Shown: positions 4,701 through 64,000 of the stretch, piece after piece
Layout of the letters: each line of letters starts with the position of its first letter
Position numbering within the stretch: position 1 is the first letter of the stretch
From: Narcine bancroftii
Taxonomy: Eukaryota
Direction of reading: 5' to 3'
NCBI RefSeq assembly: GCF_036971445.1
Contig: NC_091470.1
Span: 159,340,001-159,404,000 of the forward strand
DNA: 64,000 nt
The notes under the pieces: model-generated
What the model saw: the letters and a program-made list of their open reading frames with translations, nothing else
What the model was told of the DNA's origin: nothing
Database searches by the model: none
Translations under genes and position numbers: made by a program

Positions 4701-6651
4701 CTGCAGAAATAAGACCATTCTATGTCACTTCTGTAGAGATCTGATGAGAGAACAAAGAAGAATGAGTTGAACAGAAAAACTGGAACAACAAAAAAGGAGA
4801 CGGTCAGGTAAAAGGACAAGTTGATGTCAAGTAACGGCTGACATTTGCTTAGGCAGTGTGGAAAGGTTGCTGTGGCAATTAGCAGCTTTACTATCCCTGA
4901 CGCCAACATAAAGAGGTAGTTTTGAGAAATTGTATACCAGGAAGAGACTGGTGCATAAGAAATTATGAGAACTCATAATAATTTGCAATGAGTAAAGAAA
5001 CATAAAAAGGTAAAGTCAGGTGTGTATTTATTTATTTTTTCATAATAATAAATTTTGAATGTAAACATATGGAAGAGTCAACATGACCATATAATTGTAA
5101 CATCAAAGCAATATTTCGAACATTTAAAGAAATGATATAAAAAAAGTGTCATATGTGTTGATCAATGGATGCAACTCCAGAGAAAACAATTGCAGAAGAA
5201 GACCTCAAGTCTCTTATTTGAGGATACTTCGCTACATCAGACCCTGGCTAAATTTATCTGGAGTGGGTAATATGTGATTACAATGAATGAGTTTTGGGGA
5301 TTGTGAAGTAGATGATTTAAATAATTTGAGTTTGTACTACATATTGTACTAATAAAGAAATACAGTTAAAAGGCAAAGTCATGTCTGGTACGCTTTGCAG
5401 TGTGCTACATTTAATCGGCATTTTAATTAACAACACTTTGGAGGCAATCTAGCTATTCAAGGGAGAGTGAAATAACTATAGACCTGTTGAGAAAAGGCTA
5501 GAATCCATTTTTCATAAGTTTACCAAGGTTTCCGATGTCATACTGAACCTCTACGAACTCCTGAAGAAGCGGAGGCACTGACGTGTTTTCTTCACAATGA
5601 CATTGGTATGATGGTTCCAGGAAAGGTAATTAACTCACAAGAATTTAAATCTGCTCATTTTGTCCACACTGATCCCCAAACGATTACTGGATTGTACACC
5701 CACTGGTTTTCCTTTCCTTGAGCCTACAATCAGGTCCTTGATCTTGGTGACATTAAGTGAGAGCTTGTTGTTAGTTCACTATTCAGTCAGTTTTCAATCT
5801 CCTTCCTCTATGCTAACTCATCACCCTTTCATATATAGCTCACTATGTGGGGGGGGGGGGAAAGGAATATCATCAGAAAAATTGTAAATGTTGTTATCAT
5901 TCCAAGTTACACAGTCATAGTTGTAAAGAGGGAAGAGCAGGGGAAATAAGTACTCAACCGTGTGATGTTCAGTGTTGATGGAGATTGTGGAGTAGATGTT
6001 CTTGCTAATCTGCACTGATCTGGGTCTGGATGTGAGGTCCAGTTGGCAAGGAGCGAAGAAGCGGGAGCATGCTGTGCTGAACAGACGTGAGTAGAGTGGT
6101 CCTAATTTATCTATTTATTTAAAAAGTCAGGTGTGTATTTATTTATTTAAATTGTAAGGGGAAGGGCTTGTTGGTGTAAATTTAAAGTTAAAGTAGTTAA
6201 TTTAATTTTAAGTTAAAATTTAATAGGGGAGGGGGCTAGTGCACAGGCGTGTGGTGACGTCAGCAGGGAGGGAGTTTTAAAATCAAAGAAAACCTTACCT
6301 CAGTTGAGGTCCAGTTGGCAAGGAGTGAAGAGGCGGGAGCGTGCTGTGCTGAACGGACGTGAGTAGAGTGGTCATTTAGTCTTAATTAAGAGTTAATAAT
6401 TTAGGTGGGGATTGCTGTTCAGTGCAGAGACAGTAATTGAATAGGGAGTGCAGGTGGGAGTAATTAAAGGAAACTGGTTAGGATTGGACAGTGCTAGTGG
6501 TCACATTGGGTAGTGTATTAAAGTAAAGGAAAGGTTTTTGGGAGTGGCAGTGAGAGAGCAGCCCAAGCGAGTGAGTGGGAGCACAGGTTGAGGATGAGTC
6601 ACTGCACATTAAGGTAAGATAGTCTTTATTACTACTTCGTTGGGGTAAAGG

Positions 6652-7588
6652 ATGAGTGTTAGGGCTGTGTGTTGTTGGGAGTGCCAGATGTGGGAGGCCC
6701 TGGAGTCTTCAAGACTCCCGGATGTCCATATCTGCACTAGGTGTGTTGAGCTGCAGATTCTTAGGGACCGTGTTAGGGAACTAGAGCTGCAGCTCGATGA
6801 CCTCAGGCTGGTTAGGGAAACAGAGGAAGTCATAGACAGGAGTTACACCCAGGTGGTCACGCCAGGGCCACAGGAGGAGGAAAGGTGGGTAACAGTTAGG
6901 AGAGGGACAGAAAAACGTAAGGTGCCAGAGAGGAGCCCTATGACTGTAACCCTCAGCAATAAGTACGCCTCTTTGAGTACTGTTGAGGAGTACATCAAAG
7001 TTGGGGGGAGCAGCAGTGGCTGTGCCTCTGGCACGGGGTCAGCCCCTGTAGCTCAGAAAGGTAGGGAAAGGAAGAGGAGGGCAATAGTGGTAGGGGACTC
7101 CATAGTTAAGAGGACAGATAGGGGATTCTGTGGACGCAGCAAGGAGAACCAGATGGTGGTTTGCCTCCCTGGTGCCAGGGTCCGGGATGTTGCTGCTCGT
7201 GTCCCGGATATCCTAAAGTGGGAGGGACAGGAGCCAGAGGTCGTGGTACATGTAGGTACCAATGACATAGGGAGGAATAGAGAAGAGGTCCTAAAAAGTG
7301 AGTACAGGCAGTTAGGTAGGGAGTTAAAAAGAAGGACCGCAAAGGGGGTAATCTCTGGATTACTCCCTGTGCCACGTGACAGTGAGAATAGAAATAGAAT
7401 GAGGTGGAGGATTAACACGTAGCTGAAGGGGTGGAGTAAGGGGCAGGGTTTCAAGTTTCTGGATCACTGGGACCTTTTTTGGGGAAAATGTGACCTGTAC
7501 AGTAAGGACAGGTTACACTTAAATCCCAGGGGGGCCAGAATCCTGGCAGGGGTATTTGCTAGGGCTACTCGGGATCCTTTAAACTAGA
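6652..7588 (+). pseudogene. CR1 ORF1: Cys-rich/leucine-zipper N-terminus plus SGNH esterase domain
   Basis: CxxCxxW…CxxC, GDS, GTND and DRLHL motifs; premature TAG at 7420-7422 with homology continuing in frame. Confidence 0.88.
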
Positions 7589-7592
7589 ATGT

Positions 7593-10418
7593 TTGGGGGG
7601 AGGGAGCAAAATAGTACAGAGCAGTAAGGAGAAGGTTAGAATGCAAACAAAGAAAGTTTGTAGTAAGTATTTGAATATGGATGGGCAGGTGATAGAGAAA
7701 GGAAATACTCTGGAAGAAGATGAAGGGCAATTGGCAGAAAAAGGAAATAATGTTGTTATTAAAGATGAGGGAAAACAGGGATTAAGAATTGGGAAATCTC
7801 TGAAATTCATATATTTTAATGCCAGGAGTATTGTAAAAAAGGTGGATGAGCTGAAGGTGTGGATTGATACTTGGAAGTATGATGTGGTAGGATAGATTAG
7901 AGGGCTCGTCCATGGAGGCTATTTGGGTGGAACTGAGGAGTGGGAAAGGAGAGGTTACACTTGTAGGGGTGTATTATAGATCACCTGGAGGGGACCGAGA
8001 CCTAGAGGAGCAAATCTGTAGGGAGGTAGTGGATATTTGTGATAAGCACAGGGTTGTAATTATGGGAGATTTTAATTTTCCACATATAGATTGGGAAACA
8101 TTCTGTGAAAGGGCTGGATGGGTTAGACTTTGTGAAATGTGTGCAAATAGTTTTTTACAAAAATATGTAGAGGTGCTGACCAGAGAAGGAGCAGTGTTAG
8201 ATCTACTGTTGGCAAATGGGGTGGGTCAAGTGACGGAGGTTAGTGTGGGCGAGTACTTCGGGTCCAGTGATCATAATGCCATCAGCTTCAATGTCATTAT
8301 GGAAAGAGATAAGTCAGGGCCAAGGGTTGAGGTTTTTGATTGGGGAAAAGCTAGATTTGAGGAGATGCGAAAGGACTTACAGGGTGTGCATTGGGACAAT
8401 TTGTTTTATAGGCAGGATGTAGTAGAGAGATGGAAGTCTTTTAAAGATCAGATTTTGAGAGTGCAAAAGCTTTATATTCCTGTTAAGTTAAAAGGAGGGG
8501 CAAAAGGTTTGAGAGAGCCATGGTTTTCAAGGAATATTGGAAACTTGGTTCGAAGAAAAAGGGAGGCGTACATTAGGTATAAGAAGCATGGAATTAAGGA
8601 GATGTTTGAAAAATACATTGAATGTAAGAGGAATCTTAAGAGAGGAATTAGGAAAGCTAAAAGAAGGTACGAGGAGACTATAGCAAGCAGGGTGAAAATT
8701 AATCCAAAAGGGTTCTACAAATATGTTAATGGTAAAAGAAAAGCGAGAGACAAAATTGGTCCCTTAGAGAATCAGAGCGGAAAACTGTGTGTGGAGCCTA
8801 ATAGATATTGAAGTTTATTTTCTTCGGTATTCACCAAGGAGAAGGAAATTGGGATATGTGAGATAAAAAAAGCAAATTGGGTAAATATGCAGAATATAGT
8901 GATTACGAAAGATGTAGTGTTAGGGCTTTTGAGGAATATAAAGGTAGATAAGTCTCCGGGACCAGACGGGATCTTCCCCAGGACATTGAGAGAAGTAAAG
9001 GAGGAAATAGCAGAGGCTCTGACAGTAATGTCATTAGAGATGGGGATAGTGCCGGAGGATTGGCGTATTGCGCATGTGGTTCCGTTATTTAAAAAGGGTT
9101 CAAGGAAGAAGCCTGGGAATTATTGGCCTGTAAGTTTGACATCTGTGGTAGGTAAATTAATAGAGAAAGTTCTTAGAGATAGTACTTATAAATATCTGGA
9201 TAGACAGGGTCTGATCAGGAGCACTCAACACGGATTTGTGGGCGGAAGGTCCTGTTTGACCAATCTGATTGAATTTTTTGAAGAGGTGACTAGGAATGTG
9301 GATGAGGGTAGCGCGGTGGATGTTGTCTACATGGACTTCAGTAAGGCCTTCGATAAGGTACCACATGGAAGGTTAGTTAGGAAGGTGCAGTCTTTAGGTA
9401 TAAATTTTGGATTGAACATTGGCTGAAGGAGAGAGGCCAGAGAGTGGTAGTGGATAATTGTCTGTCAGGTTGGAGGCCGGTGACCGGTGGTGTGCGTCAG
9501 GGATCTGTATTGGGCCCATTGTTGTTCGTTATATACATTAATGATCTAGATGATGGGGTGGTGAATTGGATTAGTAAATATGCAGACGATACTAAGATAG
9601 GTGGAATAGTGGATAATGAAGAAGGTTTTCAAGGATTGCAGAGGGATTTGGGCTGCTTAGAAAAGTGGGCTGAAAAATGGCAGATGGAATTTAATGCTGA
9701 TAAGTGTGAGGTGCTTCATTTTGGTAAGAAGAATCAGAACAGGACATAAGTAGTAAATGGGAGAGCATTGATGAATACAGAAGAGCAGAAAGATTTAGGA
9801 GTAACGGTACATCGTTCCCTGAAGGTAGAAACTCATGTGAATAGGGTGGTGAAGAAGGCTTTTAGTATGCTGGCCTTTATCAATCATTGCATGGAATATA
9901 GGAGTTGGGAAGTGATGTTGAGATTGTATAAGGCGTTGGTGCGGCCTAATTTAGAGTTCTGTGTGCAGTTCTGGTCGCCTAATTATAGGAAGGATATAAA
10001 CAGAGTGGAGAGAGTGCAGAGATTTACCAGAATGTTACCTGGGTTTAAGCATCTAGAGTACAGGGAGAGATTGGGCAGATTAGGTCTTTATTCTTTGGAG
10101 CGTAGAAGGTTGAGAGGGGATTTGATAGAGGTATTTAAGATTATGAAAGGGATAGACAGAGTGGATGTGGATAGACTATTTCCGTTAAGAGTAGGAGAGA
10201 TTGAAACAAGAGGACATGAGTTAAGAGTTAAGGGGCAGAGGTTTAGAGGTAACATGAGGGGGAACTTCTTTACTCAGAGAGTGGTAGCGGTGTGGAATGA
10301 GCTTCCGGGAGAAATAGTGGCGGCAGAGTCAATTTTATTATTTAAGAAAAAGTTAGACAGGTGTATGAATGAGAAGAAGGCGGAGGGTTATGGTCATTGT
10401 GCAGGTAGGTGGGACTAG
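7593..10418 (+). pseudogene. CR1 ORF2 (endonuclease and reverse transcriptase), frameshifted with an internal deletion
   Basis: FNARSI, GDFNFP, SDHN, KSPGPDG, DFSKAFDKV, QGSVLGP and YADD spread over five ORF fragments. Confidence 0.92.
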
Positions 10419-11231
10419 AGAGGAGTGTTTGGTTTGGTGCAGACTAGAAGGGCCTAATGGCCTGTTTCCGTGCTGTAATTATTATATATGTTATATGTTA
10501 TCCAATTGCACAGTAGGATATTGAGGCCCAGGTCTTAGTGATTTCTGATTAGTTTTGAAGGGAATGATGGTATTGAATGCCGAAATGTAATCCACAAAGA
10601 GATTTGTGATGTACAAGTCTTTGCTGTCCTGATGTTCCAGGATTTTGTGCATAGCCAGTGAGATGGCATCTGCCGTATACATGTATGGCAAATTGGAATG
10701 GATTTGTGCCACTGCTCAGGCAGGAGCTGATATACTTGAACACCAGCCTCTCAAAGAACTTCATCATTGTGGATGTGAGTGCCAGTGGTTGATAGTCTTT
10801 TAGGCATGTCACCACATTTTCTTGGTCATGTGATGACATGGGTATGATTGAGGCCTGTTTTTGTTTTTTTTTAAAACAGGTGGGTAGCTCACTCTTGTCA
10901 GTGAGATGTTGAAGATATCCATGAATATATTGGCCAGTTAGTCAGTACAGGTTTACTGTACTCGGCCAGGTACTCCATCTGGACCAGATGCTTTCTATGG
11001 ATTCATTCTACTGAAGGCAGACTACACGTCATCTTCGGATACTGACTGGAGGGGATCATCAGGAGACATGGGATGTGCAGTGGACCATCCTTGTTTTGGT
11101 GGTCAAATCAAGCACAGAAGCCATTGAGTTCATCTAGGAGTGAAGCTTCGCTGTCTCCTACTGCACCGGATTTGATTTTGCAGCAGGTTATGTCATTTAG
11201 GCCCTGCCCCAGCTTTTGGGTATCCTTCATT

Positions 11232-25489: not shown

Positions 25490-25719
25490 CACAGCAAACC
25501 GGAAGTAGTCCGGCTGGAAAACAATTCCGGGTAGAAATATACACACGAAAACAAAATCACCAATTGCTTTAAATCCAAACTCGGTAGCTCAAAAAGATAG
25601 GGGTATATTTCCCAGCCCACGTAGCACAGCACAGCTGAGGGCGCGCGTCAGGCTCAGACAGTGACGTCGTTTGCCGGGGCCATTTAGGAAAGGACCCTGG
25701 GCGACTTCCTGTCGGGACC
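25490..25719 (+). promoter_or_regulatory. UTP3 CpG-rich promoter and 5' UTR
   Basis: ETS-type CCGGAAGT (25499-25506), CRE-like TGACGTC (25662-25668) and ACTTCCTG (25704-25711) directly upstream of gaccATG. Confidence 0.6.
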
Positions 25720-25727
25720 ATGCGTCG
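25720..25727 (+). CDS. UTP3: UTP3 exon 1 (ATG CGT CG)
   Basis: accATG context and gtaaga donor; phase 2 fits exon 2. Confidence 0.75.
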
Positions 25728-26059
25728 GTAAGAAACTGTGTGGTAATTAGGGGAAAGGGGTACTGATCCGGAGAGAGTGGGGACTATAGATATGGGTTCT
25801 TCCCCCAGAAGTGGGGGTACGGTTCAGGTCGGAGAGAGACTTCTGGTGGTGTTGCGGCGAGGAGATCGAACGCCTTCGGCCTCAGCGACCCAACTGGGTC
25901 AACCAAGGAACCAAGCGGCCTGTTTGTGTTTGGTGTGATCCCACAAACCTGAGCTGAATTTGGCCAGGTCACTGTTTTACGAGAATATCTACTTCCCTGC
26001 TTGCTCGACTTTAAATGTCCCATCTTCTTTCTTTCTGTGGATGCTGAGTCCCCTCGTGG

Positions 26060-49692: not shown

Positions 49693-50025
49693 TTATTCTG
49701 GACTTTTGCTCTTTTCTATAAAGTTGGTGTGGCATTCACTCAAATGTTGCACAATCTTCTCTTCAATCTCTTGCTGTTGCTTCACCTCATTCTCTGAAAG
49801 TGCCAGATCAATCTGAGAATCCTCAGTGACTATAACAACATACACCCTCCGTGTTTCAAGGGTGTTGGCAACAACAACCTGGTGTCGGTAAGTTGCTAAA
49901 GCTTTACGCGCTCGAGCCACCAGCTGTGATGAATCAGTCTCCAACTTGAAGGATGTGACGAATGCATGAGGAGCCCAGTCCTTCACTAGGGGAGCAAGCA
50001 TCTTGGGAACCATTTGCATCGTTAG
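49693..50025 (-). CDS. PPCS: PPCS exon 3 (terminal)
   Basis: ttttag|LTMQMVPKMLAPLVKDWAP…SFKLETD…KSPE*. Confidence 0.96.
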   Translation of the reverse strand, partial: LTMQMVPKMLAPLVKDWAPHAFVTSFKLETDSSQLVARARKALATYRHQVVVANTLETRRVYVVIVTEDSQIDLALSENEVKQQQEIEEKIVQHLSECHTNFIEKSKSPE

Positions 50026-50260
50026 CTAAAATAAAATATTTAAAAAAAAAGCTTAAATCACCATGTCTTCCACTATATTACAATACTTCCCCCCAAAAAT
50101 TGTTGTATTTCAGTTTTCTTCTTACTGAAGTAAAAGGTAGCCCTACTGGCCATGAAAACTTGTACAAATTTAATCCATATGTCCACCTTATCATGGTGTA
50201 GGAATTTCCCCTTTGTTGTCTCTTAACTTGACTCCAGATGCTGTCAAACACTCAAATCAC

Positions 50261-50364
50261 CTGCAGAGGGCTAGCACCCGATTGAATTTTGTGCTCTGGC
50301 ATCTCTGACGCAGGAATGAAGAAATCCGACACTGCTGCCGCAAGGTAGAACATTGCTTTTGGTC
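50261..50364 (-). CDS. PPCS: PPCS exon 2
   Basis: ttatag|…CAG|gtgatt; [35 protein letters not shown]. Confidence 0.95.
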
Positions 50365-50500
50365 CTATAAAAAGATGTTCAAAGCATACCACAAGTTATT
50401 CAGTATATTCTCTTGATGTGTAAATCATAATAAAGTAGCTGTGGACATTAATTCTTTGTTCTCTGTCCAGCCTCTTTTTACCTGTACCAATGACAGGTTA

Positions 50501-55410: not shown

Positions 55411-55826
55411 AGATGTAGAGTGATGAAGATTTGACTGATATTTGGTTCACTAATTATCCCTGCTTAATTTTCAACCAATTCCTCCCTGACACTGAGCTCT
55501 TTTCCCAACATTCCTCATCCAGTCCCTGAACACAGGGGTAAAACACGAAAGTCTGCAGAAACCATGGCTGAAGTAAAAACACAATGTGGAGAAACACAAC
55601 AGGTCAAGCAGTGTCCTGTAAAAAATACGTTACTGACATTTTGGGCTTGGTATGGGAAAATGTCGGCAGGCATCCAAACAAGGGTGGGGGTTGGAGAAGG
55701 TGTAGTCGCAAAGGCCAGAGATGATGGGTGGAAGGAGAAGGGAGGAGGGATTGGTTGGGTGAAGTGAGGGGGAAGGGAACACAAAGCTGGGGAAACTCAG
55801 CAGGTCAAGCAGTGTCCTTTATATTA

Positions 55827-56196
55827 AGCCGCTTTCAGGTGCATTCTCCGCCAAGAATGCCCATGTATAAGCGGACACAGCCCGGTCGTTTAGGTGGCAG
55901 CCCTGAAAGCGCTGCGCTGTCCACCTTAAAGGGATAGCTGCAGGAGAGCCGCCTCGGGGTGCACTCCGGCTCCTGTCCACTTGCGACGCTGGAAACGGGG
56001 GCCGCCAGGCAGCGGGGGAGTTGGGTCACTTTCAGGGGCTCGGGGGGACTCAGTGCTCTGGCGATTATCCCTCCCGGAGGGTTCGAAAATGCCCCTCCGA
56101 GGCGCCTCCTGCTCTTTCAGGTGGGTGCCCCGAGAGCCGCTTAGAGGCAGAATATGCAGCTTGACCTGGAGGTCTTCTGGCCACCAGAAAGAGCCT
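55827..56196. mobile_element. PIF/Harbinger-like MITE in PPCS intron 1
   Basis: TIR agccgctttcaggtg…caccagaaagagcct; TSD tta. Confidence 0.65.
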
Positions 56197-56268
56197 TTAG
56201 CAGCCAACCTCGCCCTTTAATCATCCACAGGAAACCAACCCTTTGAACGTCGAGTGATGTTGTCCTAC

Positions 56269-56794
56269 CTGAGGGGCTGAGCGCCTGAGCGGCGGCCCTG
56301 AGCAGATACAAGTAGTCGGACAAGGTGCTGAACTCCACGGGCAGGAGCAGGCCGGCCTCCCGCACGGCCGTGTATCGCTGCAGCACCGGCACGATGCCGG
56401 GCAGCGCGGCCTGGTCGGCCTCCACCCGCCAGCGGGTGGTCTCCGCGACGGGCACGGCCTTCAGCGCGTCCAGGAGGTTGAGGCCGGAGTACCGGCGGGA
56501 GAAGGGGGAGAGGGAGCGGTGGCGGTGCAGGAAGACCACGGCGTAGCCGAGCTCGAGGAAGTACTCCGCGGACCCGGCGCCGCGCCAGCCGCTGCTGAAG
56601 TTGTCCAGGAAGCGCACAGTCCGCGACTCCAGCGGCACCTTGGTGCCGCCCGACGTCACCAGCACTACCCGGCGGCCTTGCGCCGAGTGCCGCTCCGCGA
56701 ACTCGGCCATGGCCCGGGCCGAGCTGTCCGCATTGGGCGGCGGCACGCAGCCCGAGAAGAACCCGCTCCAGTCCGACTCCTTCTCCGCCGCCAT
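56269..56794 (-). CDS. PPCS: PPCS exon 1 (CpG island)
   Basis: MAAEKESDW…[10 protein letters not shown]|gtagga. Confidence 0.96.
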
Positions 56795-59700
56795 GACGAC
56801 TGATGCCGCTCCGGTCCCACCTCAATTACCGTCCGGCATCAGCCCGTCCGCGGAATCTTCCCCGGCGCACCGTCCTGCCCGCCGTCTTCTGCTCTTTAAC
56901 TTGTCCGCGTTAGGTCTCATTTTTGCAGCGACAGTAGCAAGAGGGGCAGAGGGCTATGCTAGTTCCGAGCATCGTGTCCCAAGCCCGGAGCAACTCGGCC
57001 CCAAATCCCTAGCAACACGACCAAGTCCCAAGCAACGCGTCCCAAGTCGCGAGAAAGACGCCCCCTAGTCCCTGGCAGCGTGGCCCCAAAGTCCCTAGCA
57101 ACACGTCCCAAGTCCCTGGCAACGCGGCCCCGTCCCTGGCAACTTGGCCCCAAATCCCTAGCAACGTGCCCCAAAGTCCCTAGCAACGCGTCACAAGTCC
57201 CTGGGAACCTGGCCCCAAATACCTGGCACGTGGCCTCGTCCCTAGCAACGTGCCCCAAAGTCCCTAGCAATGCGTCGCAAGTCCCTTGCATCGCGGCCCC
57301 GTCCCTGGCAACTCGGCCCCAAGTCCCTAGCAACGCGGCACCAAGTCCCAAGCAATGCGAATCGTCCCTGGCAACGTGCCCCAAAGTCCCTGGAACGTGC
57401 CCCAAAGTCCCTAGCAACGTTCCCCAAAGTCCATAGAAACTCGGCCCCGTCCCTAGCAACGTGCCCCAAAGTCCCTAGCAACGTGCCCCAAAGTCCCTAG
57501 AAACGTGCCCCAAAGTCCCTAGCAACGTGCCCCAAAGTCCCTAGCAACGTGCCCCAAAGTCCCTAGCAACGCGACCCGTCCCTAGCAACGTGCCCCAAAG
57601 TCCCTAGCAACGCGTCCCAAGACGTTTGCAACGCGGCGCCGTCCCTGGCAACGAGACCCCAAGTCCCTAGTAATGCGGACCCACGTCCCTGGCAACTCGG
57701 CCCCAAATCTCTGGCACATGGCCTCAAGTCCCTAGCAACGCGCCCCAAATTCCCAACCAAAGCGGCCCCAAGTCGCTGGCAGCGTGCTCTCGTCCTAGCA
57801 ACGTGCCCCAAAGTGCCCCAAAATTCCTGGCAACGCGGCCCCAAGACCCTGGCAACGCGGCCCCAAGACCCTGGCAACGCGGCCCCAAGACCCTGGCAAC
57901 GCGGCCCCAAGACCCTGGCAACGCGGCCCCAAGACCCTGGCAACTCGGCCCCAAATCCCTGTCAGCGTGGCCCCAATTCCCTAGCAACGTGCCCCAAAGT
58001 CCCTGGAGCGTGCCCCAAAGTCCATAGCAACGTTCCCCAAAGTCCATAGAAACTCGGCCCCGTCCCTAGCAACGTGCCCCAAAGTCCCTAGCAACGTTCC
58101 CCAAAGTCCATAGCAACGCGGCCCGTCCCTAGCAACGTGCCCCAAAGTCCCTAGCAACGCGTCCCAAGTCCCTTGCAACGCGGCGCCGTCCCTGGCAACG
58201 AGACCCCAAGTCCCTAGTAATGCGGACCCACGTCCCTGGCAACTCGGCCCCAAATCTCTGGCACGTGGCCTCAAGTCCCTAGCAACGCGCCCCAAATTCC
58301 CAACCAAAACGGCCCCAAGTCGCTGGCAGCGTGCTCTCGTCCCTAACAACGTGCCCCAAAGTCCCTAGCAACGTGCCCCAAAGTCCCTAGCAACGTGCCC
58401 CAAAGTCCCTAGCAACGTGCCCCAAAGTCCCTAGCAACGTGCCCCAAAGTCCCTAGCAACGTGCCCCAAAGTCCCTAGCAACGGGCCCCAAAGTCCCAAG
58501 CAATGCGGACCTGTCCCTGGCAACGTGCCCCAAAGTTCCTGGCAACGTGCCCCAAAGTTCCTGGCAACGTGCCCCAAAATTCCTGGCAACGTGCCCCAAG
58601 ACCCTGGCAACGCGGCCCCAAGACCCTGGCAACTCGGCCCCAAATCCCTGTCAGCGTGGCCCCAATTCCCTAGCAACGTGCCCCAAAGTCCATAGCAACG
58701 CGGCCCTAAGTCCAAAGCAACGTGCCCCAAAGTCCCTAGCAACGTGCCCCAAAGTCCCAAGCAACGCATCCCTAGTCGCGAGAACGTCGTCCCCAAGTCC
58801 CTAGCAACGCGGCCCCAAGACCCTGGCAACTCGGCCCCAAATCCCTGTCTGCGTGGCCCCAGTTCCCTAGCAACGGGCCCCAATTCCCTAGCAACGTGCC
58901 CCAAAGTCCAAAGCAACGTGCCCCAAAGTCCCTGGCAACGCGGCCCCAAGTCCCCAACAACGCGCCCCAAAATCCTTAGCAACGCATCCCAAGTCCATAG
59001 CAACGCGTCACGAGTCGCGAGAAAGGCGCCCCCAAGTCCCTGGCAACGCGGCCCGATGACCCTGGCAACACGGCCCGAAATCCCTGGCAGCGTGGTCCCC
59101 AATCCCTAGCAACGTGCCCCAAAGTCCCTAGCAACGTGCCCCAAAGTCCCAAGCAACGCGAACCCGTCCCTGGCAACGTGCCCCAAAGTCCCTGGCAACG
59201 TGCCCCAAAGTCCCTGGCAACGTGCCCCAAAGTCCCTGGCAACGTGCCCCAAAGTCCCTGGCAACGTGCCCCAAAGTCCCTTGCAACGCGTCCCAAGTCC
59301 CTTGCAACGTGGCGCCGTCCCTGGCAACTCGGCCCCAAATCCCTGGCAGCGTGGCCCCAAATGCATAGCAACGCGGCCCCAAGTCACTGGCAACGTGCCC
59401 CAAAGTCCCTGGCAACGCGACCCCGTCCCTAGTAACGCGGACCCACGTCCCTGGCAACTCGGCCCCAAATCCCTGGCAACGTGGCCTCAAGTCCCTAGCA
59501 ACGTGCCCCCAAGTCTCTAGCAACGCGTCTCAAGTCCCTAGCAACGCGTCCCCAAGTCCCTGGCAACGCGTCCCCAAGTCCCTGGCAACGCGTCCCCAAG
59601 TCCCTGGCAACGCGTCCCCAAGTCCCTGGCAACGCGTCCCCAAGTCCCTGGCAACGCGTCCCCAAGTCCATGGCAACGCGGCCCGAGTCCATGGCAACGC

Positions 59701-59825
59701 GTCCCAAGTACCTAGCAACGCGTCGCCAAGTCCCTGGCAACGCGGCCTCAAGTCCCTAGCAACGTGCCAAGCCTTCCGTGGCGCAGCGCTTGAGAAGCGG
59801 AGAAAAATCGAGCTCCTCCCAAAGG
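56795..59825. promoter_or_regulatory. Divergent PPCS/ZMYND12 promoter interval with arrayed RFX X-box-like cores
   Basis: Head-to-head ATGs at 56794 and 59826; CpG-rich; repeated CCT(A/G)GCAAC, with CCATGGCAAC variants near 59668-59698. Confidence 0.65.
56960..59770. repeat. 22-bp-period GC-rich minisatellite, consensus GTCCCT(A/G)GCAACG(T/C)GCCCCAA(A), roughly 120-130 units by length
   Basis: Clean runs at 57470-57570, 57825-57945, 58350-58490, 59170-59280 and 59540-59670; it fills almost all the space between the PPCS and ZMYND12 start codons. Confidence 0.97.
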
Positions 59826-59941
59826 ATGCAAAGTTCTTCCATCTATCCCCTTGCTAATCCCAAGGGCGTCAGACTGGGGTGTGAGATGTGCCAAGCAACC
59901 GCTCACGTTATGTGTTCCCGCTGCAGGGTGACGTTTTACTG
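59826..59941 (+). CDS. ZMYND12: ZMYND12 exon 1 (start of the MYND zinc finger); not in the ORF track
   Basis: MQSSSIYPLANPKGVRLGCEMCQATAHVMCSRCRVTFY(C)|gtgagt; resembles the ZMYND12 N-terminus IYPLAxPKG…CExC…CxxCxVTYYC and is head-to-head with PPCS as in human. Confidence 0.92.
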
Positions 59942-60163
59942 GTGAGTTCGTTCAGAAATCCGAAACTGGCTGGGAAACTTGGGTCTTGGGTCCATCTCAG
60001 ACTCTCCACAGTCAGGTAAGCCAAAGTAAAATCATGGAGCCAGAGAAACTCCACCTGGAACAGTGTCCTTTATAGGGCAAAGGTAAAGATACGCCAACGT
60101 TTCGGGCACCTGCCTCCTGCCTGGATGAAGGGCTCCAGCTCGAAACGTTGGTCATGTCTCTTT

Positions 60164-60490
60164 GGCTGCTTTCAGGTGGGAATAGCAGGGAGAAGGCGGC
60201 TCCAGAGCCGGCTCCGGGTGTGTGCGAAGCGACATTTAGGTGGCGGTGCTGCTCTGGCACCCGAAAGGTCTGCAGAGGCGCCGCGGAGCAAACGCCGGCT
60301 CCTGTCGACTGTGACCGCAGTCCCACCCGCTTTCAGGTGCCTAGGAAGCGGAGAGTGCCCCTACCCAAGGAGGGTCGGGTAAGTACTCCTCAGGTCAGGG
60401 TTCTCCACTTTCAGGTGGCCTCCCAGCAGCCGCATCCGGGTATTTTAGGCGGCTTTACGTTGGGGGTATCCTGGCCACCTGAAAGCAGCT
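60164..60490. mobile_element. PIF/Harbinger-like MITE nested in Penelope-like terminal repeats (~60035-60535)
   Basis: TIR ggctgctttcaggtgg…ccacctgaaagcagct; host sequence resumes atataaaggacactgtttgacctgctgag. Confidence 0.65.
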
Positions 60491-62274
60491 ATATAAAGGA
60501 CACTGTTTGACCTGCTGAGTTTCTCCAGCAGTGAGTTTTTACTTCGGTGTTTTACTCCCATTAAACAAAAGTGCCCACCTTCGAAAGGAACCGAGAAAAT
60601 AACCTCCAACTGGTAGTTAAAACAACGGGAGAAATGTCAGATTGAGGTGCACTAGGATTTCTCATTCATGTAACTTTACTGGCAGTAAAAATATTTCCAG
60701 GGTAAACATTTTTTAAATCATGGTAGCAAGTTTATAAAGGCACTCACTGATGAAATCCGAAAACATTGTCAGTGGAATGATGTAATAATGATGAACAAAC
60801 TTTAATCACAGAGCTGAAATCAAATACAATCAGTTTCTTTAAGTATTAAAGACAGGTCGTTAATCTGGTAATGGATTAGCATGGAAACATAGAAAGAAAA
60901 TGCTTCAACTGCACTACTGATAAATTGCTGAATTTGTTCACAAATGCAAGTTTTTATTTTTAGAAAGAATTTAATTTCATGTCGATTATATTATTTTATT
61001 ATTTCTGATCAAAATAAAACTTTCCATTTAAACAAAAACTAAAGAGAAATGGTTTAAAAATCTATCAACCCATTTTTTTTCCCCCATATTTTCACTTTCA
61101 TCTCTTCTCATACTCTCAGCAAATTATTCTGGCGTTTGCTTTTTGCTCTCTGTTGCCAAAAAGATCTTGAAGTATCAGAGCCAGGCTGAGGAAGAGCTTC
61201 CCAGTGAGACTTAAAAAACAACTCTCCATGATTTCTATTTATGAACAATATTTAGTGTGTAGTGTGTCTATGTATTGTGTCTGTATACGTGATTTGCACC
61301 ATCAAACAGAGAATGCTGTTTTGTTGGGTTATAATGGTATCATCGGATGACAAATAATCTCGAACTCAACCCTATTCCTCTTAAACTGCTGGCTGTCCAA
61401 CTTTGTTTCTTGGTTGCAAAACAAACTGATATTTAACTGCACCCCCACTACCACCATTTAAAATAACCATCATCACCTCTTAACTCCTTGACTTTATCCT
61501 TGCGAACTACTATCCAAACACAACCTTATTTTCCTTACCAAATTCTTTATTGTTCAGTTACAAATCTGCTTGTTTTTCCTGCAATTCTCTCCCATCCTTT
61601 CTATCGTCATTGTCTTTGCCCAACTACTTGTCTTCCTCCAGGTCTTTGATGCTGAGATTTCTTTCAGTTGAACATGCAGAAGGTTGAGTTAATTTTTTTT
61701 CATTAAATCTTTTAACTATTGCCACTATCCCCATCACCCAACACTCTCAGACTAAGATCAATTATTCACAGTCTCGGTATCATGTAAATGCTAAATTGAT
61801 ATTCTAACCATCACCAAACCCATTTAATCCACCTCCATTGCATTTTATGACAGTCACCAGCCTTGCCATGTCCAGCTCTTAGATTTATAATGCATGTTTT
61901 TTGTCTGTCTGACCCTTCTTTTCGAGCTCCCTTCAGTGCAAGTGAAATCCATATCGCCCAACCCCACAAACCACATTCATCCATCTTAGGATTCCACATT
62001 GACATCTGGTTCTCCAAACCTAATCCAAAATTCTCACTCTTACATTTTAACCTTTCTTTGAAGGCACCCTCCCGATCTCCTCAATCTTTCTGTCTCCCAA
62101 CTGCATCCCTCATCCTCCCTCTCTTTCACTCACCCCTCTGTGGTTCACCAGTCCTCCACTCACCCCTCCTATTCTGTTCTCATTATACTGGCCATGTCCC
62201 CTCTGCTCTTTCATCTTTGAAGGTTCTGACTTGAAACACTGACAAATCATTTTCTCTCAACAATGCTGCTGGAA

Positions 62275-63278: not shown

Positions 63279-64000
63279 CTTCTTTCTTTGGCTTGGCTTC
63301 GCGGACGAAGATTTATGGAGGGGGTAAAAAGTCCACGTCAGCTGCAGACTCGTTTGTGGCTGACAAGTCCGATGCGGGACAGGCAGACACGATTGCAGCG
63401 GTTGCAGGGGAAAATTGGTTGGTTGGGGATGGGTGTTGGGTTTTTCCTCCTTTGCCTTTTGTCAGTGAGGTAGGCTCTGCGGTCTTCTTCAAAGGAGGTT
63501 GCTGCCCGCCAAACTGTGAGGCGCCAAGATGCACGGTTTGAGGTGATATCAGCCCACTGGCGGTGGTCAATGTGGCAGGCACCAAGAGATTTCTTTAGGC
63601 AGTCCTTGTACCTTTTCTTTGGTGCACCTCTGTCACGGTGGCCAGTGGAGAGCTCGCCATATAACACGATCTTGGGAAGGCGATGGTCCTCCATTCTGGA
63701 GACGTGACCCATCCAGCGCAGCCGGATCTTCAGCAGCGTGGACTCGATGCTGTCGACCTCTGCCATCTCGAGTACTTCGACGTTAGGGATGTAAGCGCTC
63801 CAATGGATGTTGAGGATGGAGCGGAGACAACGCTGGTGGAAGCGTTCTAGGAGCCGTAGGTGGTGCCGGTAGAGGACCCATGATTCGGAGCCGAACAGGA
63901 GTGTGGGTATGACAACGGCTCTGTATACGCTTATCTTTGTGAGGTTTTTCAGTTGGTTGTTTTTCCAGACTCTTTTGTGTAGTCTTCCAAAGGCGCTATT
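63279..64000 (-). mobile_element. RTE-clade LINE 3' part, continues beyond the right edge
   Basis: Closely matches 17470-18183; LRWMGHVSRMEDHRLPK…FPCNRCNRVC; tail agccaagccaaagaaagaa. Confidence 0.93.

Follow-up and report, generated by a model that had tools for sequence, protein, structure and literature searches.

The electric ray Narcine bancroftii carries PPCS and ZMYND12 as a head-to-head gene pair, and the promoter between them was analysed within a 64,000-bp stretch of its genome (NCBI RefSeq assembly GCF_036971445.1, contig NC_091470.1, positions 159,340,001 to 159,404,000 of the forward strand; hereafter the window, numbered from its first letter). This promoter is filled by a minisatellite of 131 short units, each centred on a 12-bp X-box, GTCCCT-RGCAAC, the predicted target of RFX transcription factors, oriented towards ZMYND12. 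The array is probably an amplified ancestral X-box, as had been proposed in a preliminary description made by reading the letters of this DNA. Such an origin is likely because the core of the unit is that of a validated human X-box, an RFX1 peak is found at Zmynd12 in the mouse and Zmynd12 expression falls in Rfx2 and Rfx3 knockouts; the rarity of the exact core among shuffled units (20 of 20,000) supports it further. The explanation that we prefer, with a probability of roughly 0.58, is that the ZMYND12-proximal X-box of an old head-to-head promoter was duplicated and expanded as a GC-rich, unmethylated minisatellite, which is still RFX-competent and in which the proximal units serve ZMYND12 and most copies are redundant.

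Structure of the array

A single array was detected at 56978-59764 by Tandem Repeats Finder (TRF; period 22, 128.8 copies, 74% matches) and is the sole long tandem repeat in the window. Wrap-around decomposition resolved it into 131 full units that run head-to-tail from 56960 to 59768 with a mean period of 21.5 bp; 64 units are 22 bp long, 45 are 21 bp and 22 have other lengths. There are 92 distinct sequences among the 131 units, the commonest being AAGTCCCTAGCAACGTGCCCCA. The PPCS and ZMYND12 start codons are separated by 3,031 bp, of which the array takes up 2,812 bp (93%); with its head-to-tail units in the range of ~10-100 bp and its kilobase size, the array belongs to the minisatellites. 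In the 61 kb of the window outside the array, no second copy of the unit was found (best E 1.8). The preliminary description had given a 22-bp unit repeated over ~2.8 kb, with edges ~165 bp from the PPCS ATG and ~55 bp from the ZMYND12 ATG; TRF and the decomposition agree with this, the measured distances being 165 and 54 bp.

The array has 78 occurrences of the exact core CCTRGCAAC, all of them plus-strand, and the remaining 61,188 bp have one (both strands read), so the single orientation noted earlier is confirmed. The earlier figure of '~125 cores' was too high; next to the 78 exact copies, ~80-100 units with an intact RFX site is a fair estimate. Two units near ZMYND12 do read GTCCATGGCAAC, as had been described (Table 1). 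The mean of 21.5 bp makes the proposed spacing of two helical turns real, but helical phasing was rejected as evidence, since repeat periods that come within 1 bp of some multiple of 10.5 are too common to count.

The unit as an RFX site

The array was scanned with the JASPAR matrices MA0510.1 (RFX5) and MA0600.1 (RFX2), both taken from the supplement of PMC5838959. A score of at least 0.85 on the RFX5 matrix was reached by 85 of the 131 units and at least 0.80 by 98, and the RFX2 matrix gave at least 0.80 in 57; the scan returned many predicted RFX sites, albeit fewer than the 125 first claimed. The common units score 0.87 on the RFX5 matrix, which equals the score of the X-box of human ALMS1. 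This validated site is GTCCCTAGCAACGCG, written GTCCCT AGCAAC GCG (PMC5838959 Table S5), and the array has nine exact copies of this 15-mer and 30 of its 12-mer, whereas the other 61,188 bp have none of either. In electrophoretic mobility shift assays (EMSA) the ALMS1 X-box was bound by in vitro translated RFX1 and by RFX1/RFX2 from HeLa cells, and binding was also seen by chromatin immunoprecipitation; its mutation lowered reporter activity by ~60% in serum-starved cells and had no effect in 10% serum (PMC2913254). The left half-site of the ray unit, which the preliminary description had raised as a concern, is indeed imperfect, but this is no obstacle because the 15-bp core is identical to the ALMS1 X-box that RFX1 and RFX2 bind.

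Further known sites resemble the unit. The X-boxes of DYX1C1 (PMC5024701) and FGF1B (PMC2859551) are EMSA-positive, and the 11-mer common to both has 63 exact matches in the array. The motif of RFX5/RFX7 has been given as CCTAGCAACA (PMC11344851), and identity of the core with the X1 box of major histocompatibility complex class II (MHC-II) genes is based on the HLA-DRA row of the PMC5838959 supplement. A relaxed consensus, GTNRCN-N0-3-RGYAAC, identifies 68 plus-strand sites at no more than one mismatch. Judged by this consensus, the two matrices and identity to the validated site, the unit belongs to the class of imperfect 12-bp or half-site X-boxes. When units were shuffled at the same composition, both matrix scores were reached together in 126 of 20,000 cases and the exact CCTRGCAAC in 0.1%.

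Other motifs were considered. A classical 14-bp palindromic X-box was excluded, the best palindrome match having three mismatches, and an EBF-type TCCCNNGGGA had no match. By eye, the unit may also bear some likeness to NF-kB and ZNF143/THAP11 motifs. RFX5/RFX7 sites often lie near CCAAT boxes (PMC11344851); an X-Y module of the MHC-II type was rejected, as the array contains four CCAAT words, none in good context. These words (57973, 58662, 58880 and 59099) stand immediately upstream of cores and have flanks that look poor. Three array units (57047, 58776 and 59015) contain TCGCGAGA, which is seen nowhere else on the plus strand of the window and which we take to be the core of the BANP/CGCG promoter element. 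All three depart from the consensus unit at several positions and lie in related blocks, so that they may be an older promoter relic or one copied variant. In 43 units, column 16 carries a common C>T change, which creates ACGTG, presumably a hypoxia-response core.

RFX at the orthologous mammalian promoter

To the question of whether RFX is tied to the promoter INDEPENDENTLY, the answer in mouse is yes. In mouse ependymal cells, Zmynd12 has a log2 fold change of -1.44 (2.7-fold down) in Rfx3-/- and of -1.82 (3.5-fold down) in Rfx2-/-, and Ppcs has no entry for either knockout among the rows listed (PMC7498320 supplement). One RFX1 peak, RFX1_4302, is among the rows listed (PMC7498320); its position relative to the start of Zmynd12 is +32 and relative to that of Ppcs -426, and from these two distances we infer that the site lies at the Zmynd12 end of a start-to-start interval of ~394 bp. 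The mouse neighbour Ccdc30 is also RFX-bound and down in both the Rfx2 and the Rfx3 knockout; its ray orthologue was not located in the window.

Spread of variants through the array

Mutation events and copy numbers were examined in 104 of the 131 units (27 with insertions or deletions in columns 4-21 were dropped), which comprised 55 haplotypes and 78 inferred events. The RFX2 score is raised by each of the two commonest core variants: A>G at column 9, present in 37 copies, and C>A at column 7, present in 11. Copy number was positively correlated with RFX2 tolerance in all seven subsets (rho 0.35-0.48). For RFX2, permutation within transition/transversion class gave p <=0.006 in all 12 test variants, a column-permutation null p <=0.05 in nine of the 12, and a simpler column-reassignment null was weaker (p 0.047-0.32); at the haplotype level the stratified p for RFX2 was 0.037. 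The variants found at high copy number are those that the RFX2 matrix tolerates, a signal that is no more than suggestive because the tests were post hoc and pseudo-replicated. They cannot separate selection at the level of the organism from a bias by which bound units are duplicated more often, and germline insertions that duplicate bound motifs have been documented at human spermatogonial sites (PMC8559717). Inferred events showed no relation to matrix information content (rho 0.02 and -0.05), meaning that informative positions were not avoided.

Several observations weigh against an RFX-competent array that descends from an ancestral X-box. The strict consensus GTNRCC-N0-3-RGYAAC has no perfect match in the array and three sites with one mismatch, and each matrix score taken singly is reached by ~2% of shuffled units (435 and 447 of 20,000). 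The claim that the core is better conserved than the spacer survives only as a trend: over 12 comparisons of the core with the rest, p ranged from 0.023 to 0.258 and was <0.05 in just two, and the core is no more invariant than spacer columns 17, 19 and 21. A selection test based on inferred events reached significance with neither matrix (RFX5, p 0.23; RFX2, p 0.10). With RFX5 the same copy-number nulls gave p <=0.05 in three of 12 variants by class permutation and in none of 12 by column permutation, and the haplotype-level p was 0.083. The copy-number tests also treated linked variants as independent, and it is the block duplications that made them pseudo-replicated. As to the mammalian data, neither an RFX2 nor an RFX3 peak is given for Zmynd12 among the rows listed in the PMC7498320 supplement, and Zmynd12 and Ppcs are absent from the mouse testis RFX2 tables (PMC4498915 supplement), the Xenopus Rfx2 tables (PMC3889689), where genes may go by other names, and the human RFX tables (PMC5838959 supplement). 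Finally, strict G-quadruplex (G4) patterns (loops <=7), which bear on how such an array might have expanded, are absent.

CpG content and turnover

The array contains 207 CpGs. The CpG directly after the core, which had been described as following each core, is kept in 105 of the 131 units and is thus frequent and not universal. Substitutions at C comprise 20 C>T, 26 C>A and 19 C>G, with no excess of C>T, and CpG columns have 5.0 inferred events each, compared with a mean of 4.3 per column. This history, as read from the units, fits an unmethylated germline CpG island; a germline-methylated satellite is argued against because the CpGs show no decay.

Four runs of four to five identical adjacent units are present in the one haplotype available, units diverge less near ZMYND12 (1.85 differences per unit in the first block, 0.6-0.7 in the last two), and similarity to the unit fades gradually at the left edge. 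The runs of identical units, the block duplications (Table 1) and the lower divergence near ZMYND12 suggest that turnover of the array is continuing. Instability of minisatellites can be driven by G4 structures, and the minus strand has 41 loose G4 patterns, whereas 200 shuffles averaged 12 and never exceeded 19.

Flanking genes and promoter layout

Both gene identities given earlier were upheld by protein comparisons. The translation of PPCS exon 1 is 100% identical to the named phosphopantothenate-cysteine ligase of Narcine bancroftii. ZMYND12 has 82% identity to ZMYND12 of Pristis pectinata, with the same first methionine, and its zf-MYND match is weak, below the cut-off. ZMYND12 is an axonemal protein and a DNAH1 interactor (review PMC11506864). 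The features of the locus are collected in Table 1.

Table 1. Features of the PPCS/ZMYND12 promoter and adjoining exons (window coordinates)
Feature	Position	Strand	Basis or remark
Minisatellite, 131 units of 21-22 bp	56960..59771	+	TRF, wrap-around decomposition, RFX matrices
Pair of adjoining GTCCATGGCAAC units	59666..59698 (starts 59666 and 59687)	+	RFX2 matrix 0.84 and 0.86, among the best units
Internal block duplication	57515-57795 vs 58062-58342	+	Offset 547 bp, 273/281 bases identical
PPCS coding exon 1	56269..56794	-	ATG 56794, GT donor from 56268; protein identity, Pfam DFP match
PPCS coding exon 2	50258..50365	-	tblastn, approximate
PPCS coding exon 3	49696..50025	-	tblastn, approximate
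ZMYND12 coding exon 1	59826..59941	+	ATG 59826, GTGAGT donor at 59942
Non-repetitive PPCS-side segment, 165 bp	56795..56959	.	CpG observed/expected (o/e) 1.06; one GC-box-like CCCGCC at 56878
Non-repetitive segment before ZMYND12 ATG, 54 bp	59772..59825	+	Sequence
CpG island over array and both first exons	56001..60500	.	Array GC 0.63, CpG o/e 0.83; positions 1-55800 o/e 0.32

Bidirectional promoters are defined as having start sites within ~1 kb of each other; here the start codons are 3,031 bp apart and the start sites could be inside the array. The 165-bp segment is presumed to hold the 5' untranslated region and core promoter of PPCS, and the ZMYND12 start site probably lies in the array or at its end because the 54-bp segment is so short. 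With a GC content >0.5, a CpG o/e >0.6 and divergent genes, the locus has the features of a CpG-island bidirectional promoter, and human PPCS and ZMYND12 likewise have a common CpG-island promoter (PMC3573947). The two units containing CCATGG provide upstream ATGs in frame with ZMYND12 (59670-59759), with a stop at 59759; these would be upstream open reading frames of 29 and 22 codons if transcription starts upstream of them, and eight further ATGs lie deeper in the array. The whole island is flanked, within the first introns of both genes, by inverted copies of a short interspersed-repeat segment (55778-55841 and 60476-60545; 87.5% over 64 bp). DNA upstream of PPCS, as deduced from N-terminal extensions of the predicted protein in Hypanus and Rhincodon, was uninformative, as it covers ~100-140 nt and ends before the start of the array.

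No coding role was found for the array: stops occur every 80-220 codons in the frames through it, and one array frame had no match among 2,218 candidates. A whole-library HMMER search with another array frame returned nine weak matches to unnamed proteins (E 4e-21 to 8e-4, 26-42% identity). A search for structured RNA gave no Rfam match in 56000-60500 at gathering thresholds.

Elsewhere in the window, a second CpG-rich patch (24750-26000, o/e 0.65-0.84) has no array and no match to the interspersed repeats of the window, and is possibly the promoter or an exon of another gene. Broken LINE-like reverse-transcriptase fragments, which by eye we take to be CR1-like and RTE-like, occupy 6000-11000, 16300-18200, 20950-21470 and 63280-64000; between those at 17474-18183, 20975-21463 and 63279-64000 the similarity is 89-93%.

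Origin of the array and alternative explanations

Under the preferred explanation, a bound X-box would have been duplicated through a short germline insertion and expanded by slippage and unequal exchange, perhaps aided by the G4-prone G-runs of the minus strand. Units that RFX1-3 can bind would have been preferentially kept or copied, through selection or through more frequent duplication of bound sites. RFX dimers would then occupy accessible units, those next to ZMYND12 activating it in ciliated and germ cells, as would have been the ancestral job, and the remaining copies would be mostly redundant. PPCS would be driven by the CpG-rich 165 bp on its own side, now separated from the ZMYND12 start by ~2.8 kb, compared with ~0.4 kb in the mouse.

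A tentative extension, for which we would offer fairly low odds, is a self-amplifying site: RFX occupancy in the male germline would drive duplication of bound units, and the 130-unit array would regenerate binding-competent copies and act as a copy-number-tuned or repress-then-release switch for ZMYND12, with PPCS pushed 2.8 kb away. Such a site would predict the pattern seen, in which RFX2-tolerated variants alone reach high copy number and single events arise regardless of the motif. Selection might alternatively act on the whole array in a copy-number-dependent way, making it a huge homotypic cluster that serves either as a synergistic ZMYND12 enhancer or in a MORC3-type flip between repression and activation. 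The RFX2-tolerated variants at high copy number would suit this, and there are precedents for it: tandem repeats with up to 61 homotypic motifs are bifunctional enhancers with an output that scales with the number of motifs (PMC13373173), and multiple X-boxes can cooperate non-additively (PMC3245922). We nevertheless hold it to be rather unlikely, given that between a quarter and a third of units have decayed cores (RFX5 <0.80 in 33 of 131, <0.85 in 46), that a purifying signal is absent at the level of events, that one peak suffices in the mouse (among the rows listed), that functional X-boxes are enriched <=500 bp from start sites, and that RFX has no occurrence in the portion of the MORC3 paper covered (PMC13373173).

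It is doubtful that the array is a chance GC-rich minisatellite, or a member of a dispersed repeat, that came to lie in a CpG island and resembles X-boxes by coincidence. The ~2% of shuffled units that reach each matrix score, the many transcription-factor families that could match by chance and the lack of a clear difference in conservation between core and spacer all leave room for this; against it stand the 0.1% frequency of the exact core among shuffles, the failure to find the unit again in the window, the relation of copy number to RFX2 tolerance and the independent link of precisely this family to the promoter in the mouse. The preliminary description had further offered a methylation-sensitive switch, closed in the soma and open in germ or ciliated cells. 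The 207 CpGs, and their frequent position directly after the core, made this attractive, but the absence of CpG decay lends it no support and points to an unmethylated germline history. The adjoining PPCS, a housekeeping gene of the coenzyme A pathway, needs an open island. The human promoter is partially and variably methylated (delta beta -0.08; PMC3573947), yet RFX1 binds some methylated sites (review PMC8106159), and the switch is accordingly judged very improbable. The idea that the array is a sink, titrating RFX so that less is left for other ciliary genes, draws on the 85-98 matrix-positive sites in 2.8 kb and is even harder to sustain on a global scale: mouse ependymal cells have 7,440 RFX1 and 9,318 RFX3 peaks, so that by our own arithmetic on these mouse numbers ~100 sites per allele would add ~1-3%. 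Least probable of all is an artefact of assembly or sequencing. Tandem arrays are error-prone in assemblies, but here the units are diverse (92 of 131 distinct), the block copies differ at 8 of 281 bases, similarity fades gradually at the left edge and both flanking genes are intact.

Significance

In the electric ray, a promoter shared by a gene of vitamin-B5 metabolism and a gene of the sperm tail has grown to 3 kb, which makes it a natural test of how the number of sites arises and of whether that number matters. The array joins two ideas that are usually kept separate, namely the duplication of bound motifs in the germline and the special way in which homotypic clusters behave when they are very large. 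If the amplification is true, an orthologous promoter with one RFX site (mouse) can be set against one with ~100 (ray), neutral amplification, binding-linked mutation bias and selection on site number can be compared directly, and one can ask how two head-to-head genes cope with a core between them that has expanded several-fold. Because the core is that of a validated human site, the units are testable in ordinary mammalian reporter cells.

Comparison with known systems

Minisatellites in promoters and homotypic clusters in tandem are both familiar types of element. The ray array differs from these in its factor (RFX), in having more sites than the 61 of MORC3-restricted repeats and in its position (almost the whole head-to-head start-codon interval). 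In the titles and the starts of abstracts returned by searches of an open-access library, no account was found of the ray array or of any RFX-motif minisatellite. Among promoter repeats with a variable number of tandem units (VNTRs), MNS16A of hTERT resembles the ray array: it is a minisatellite located close to a start site, and its units include a site for a transcription factor. The insulin VNTR is likewise a promoter minisatellite with transcription-factor sites in its units. Length polymorphism and effects on expression have been shown for both, whereas the ray array is known from the sequence of one haplotype.

The 12-bp, zero-spacer X-box of human ALMS1 is like the ray unit in its 15-bp core and flank, its orientation towards the ciliary gene and its GC-rich promoter (PMC2913254, PMC5838959); ALMS1 has one copy near the start site, with binding shown, and the ray has ~130 tandem copies that are predicted sites. 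Mouse Ppcs/Zmynd12 is the same head-to-head pair, with an RFX1 peak at the Zmynd12 end and Rfx2/Rfx3-dependent Zmynd12 (PMC7498320). It is unlike the ray in having a single peak (among the rows listed) and starts ~394 bp apart, and the likeness is drawn from position.

A neutral, binding-linked route by which one bound site may become a homotypic cluster in the male germline is offered by motif-duplicating insertions at spermatogonial sites (PMC8559717). Those insertions are single, of 5-20 bp and at human NRF1, PRDM9 and CTCF sites, and in the text covered RFX is unmentioned and no 130-copy expansion appears. The MORC3-restricted repeats (e.g. IFNB1-MRE) resemble the ray array in holding tens of copies of the motif of one factor, and their instability has been proposed as an amplifier (PMC13373173). 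By motif number (>15 homotypic motifs per tandem repeat) the ray array would fall into the same class, a likeness drawn from its letters. The MORC3-restricted repeats are built from PU.1 and other motifs, in up to 61 copies and 192-bp units, at a distal intronic enhancer (PMC13373173), whereas the ray array has 85-98 matrix-positive RFX sites in 22-bp units and lies inside a core bidirectional promoter and its CpG island.

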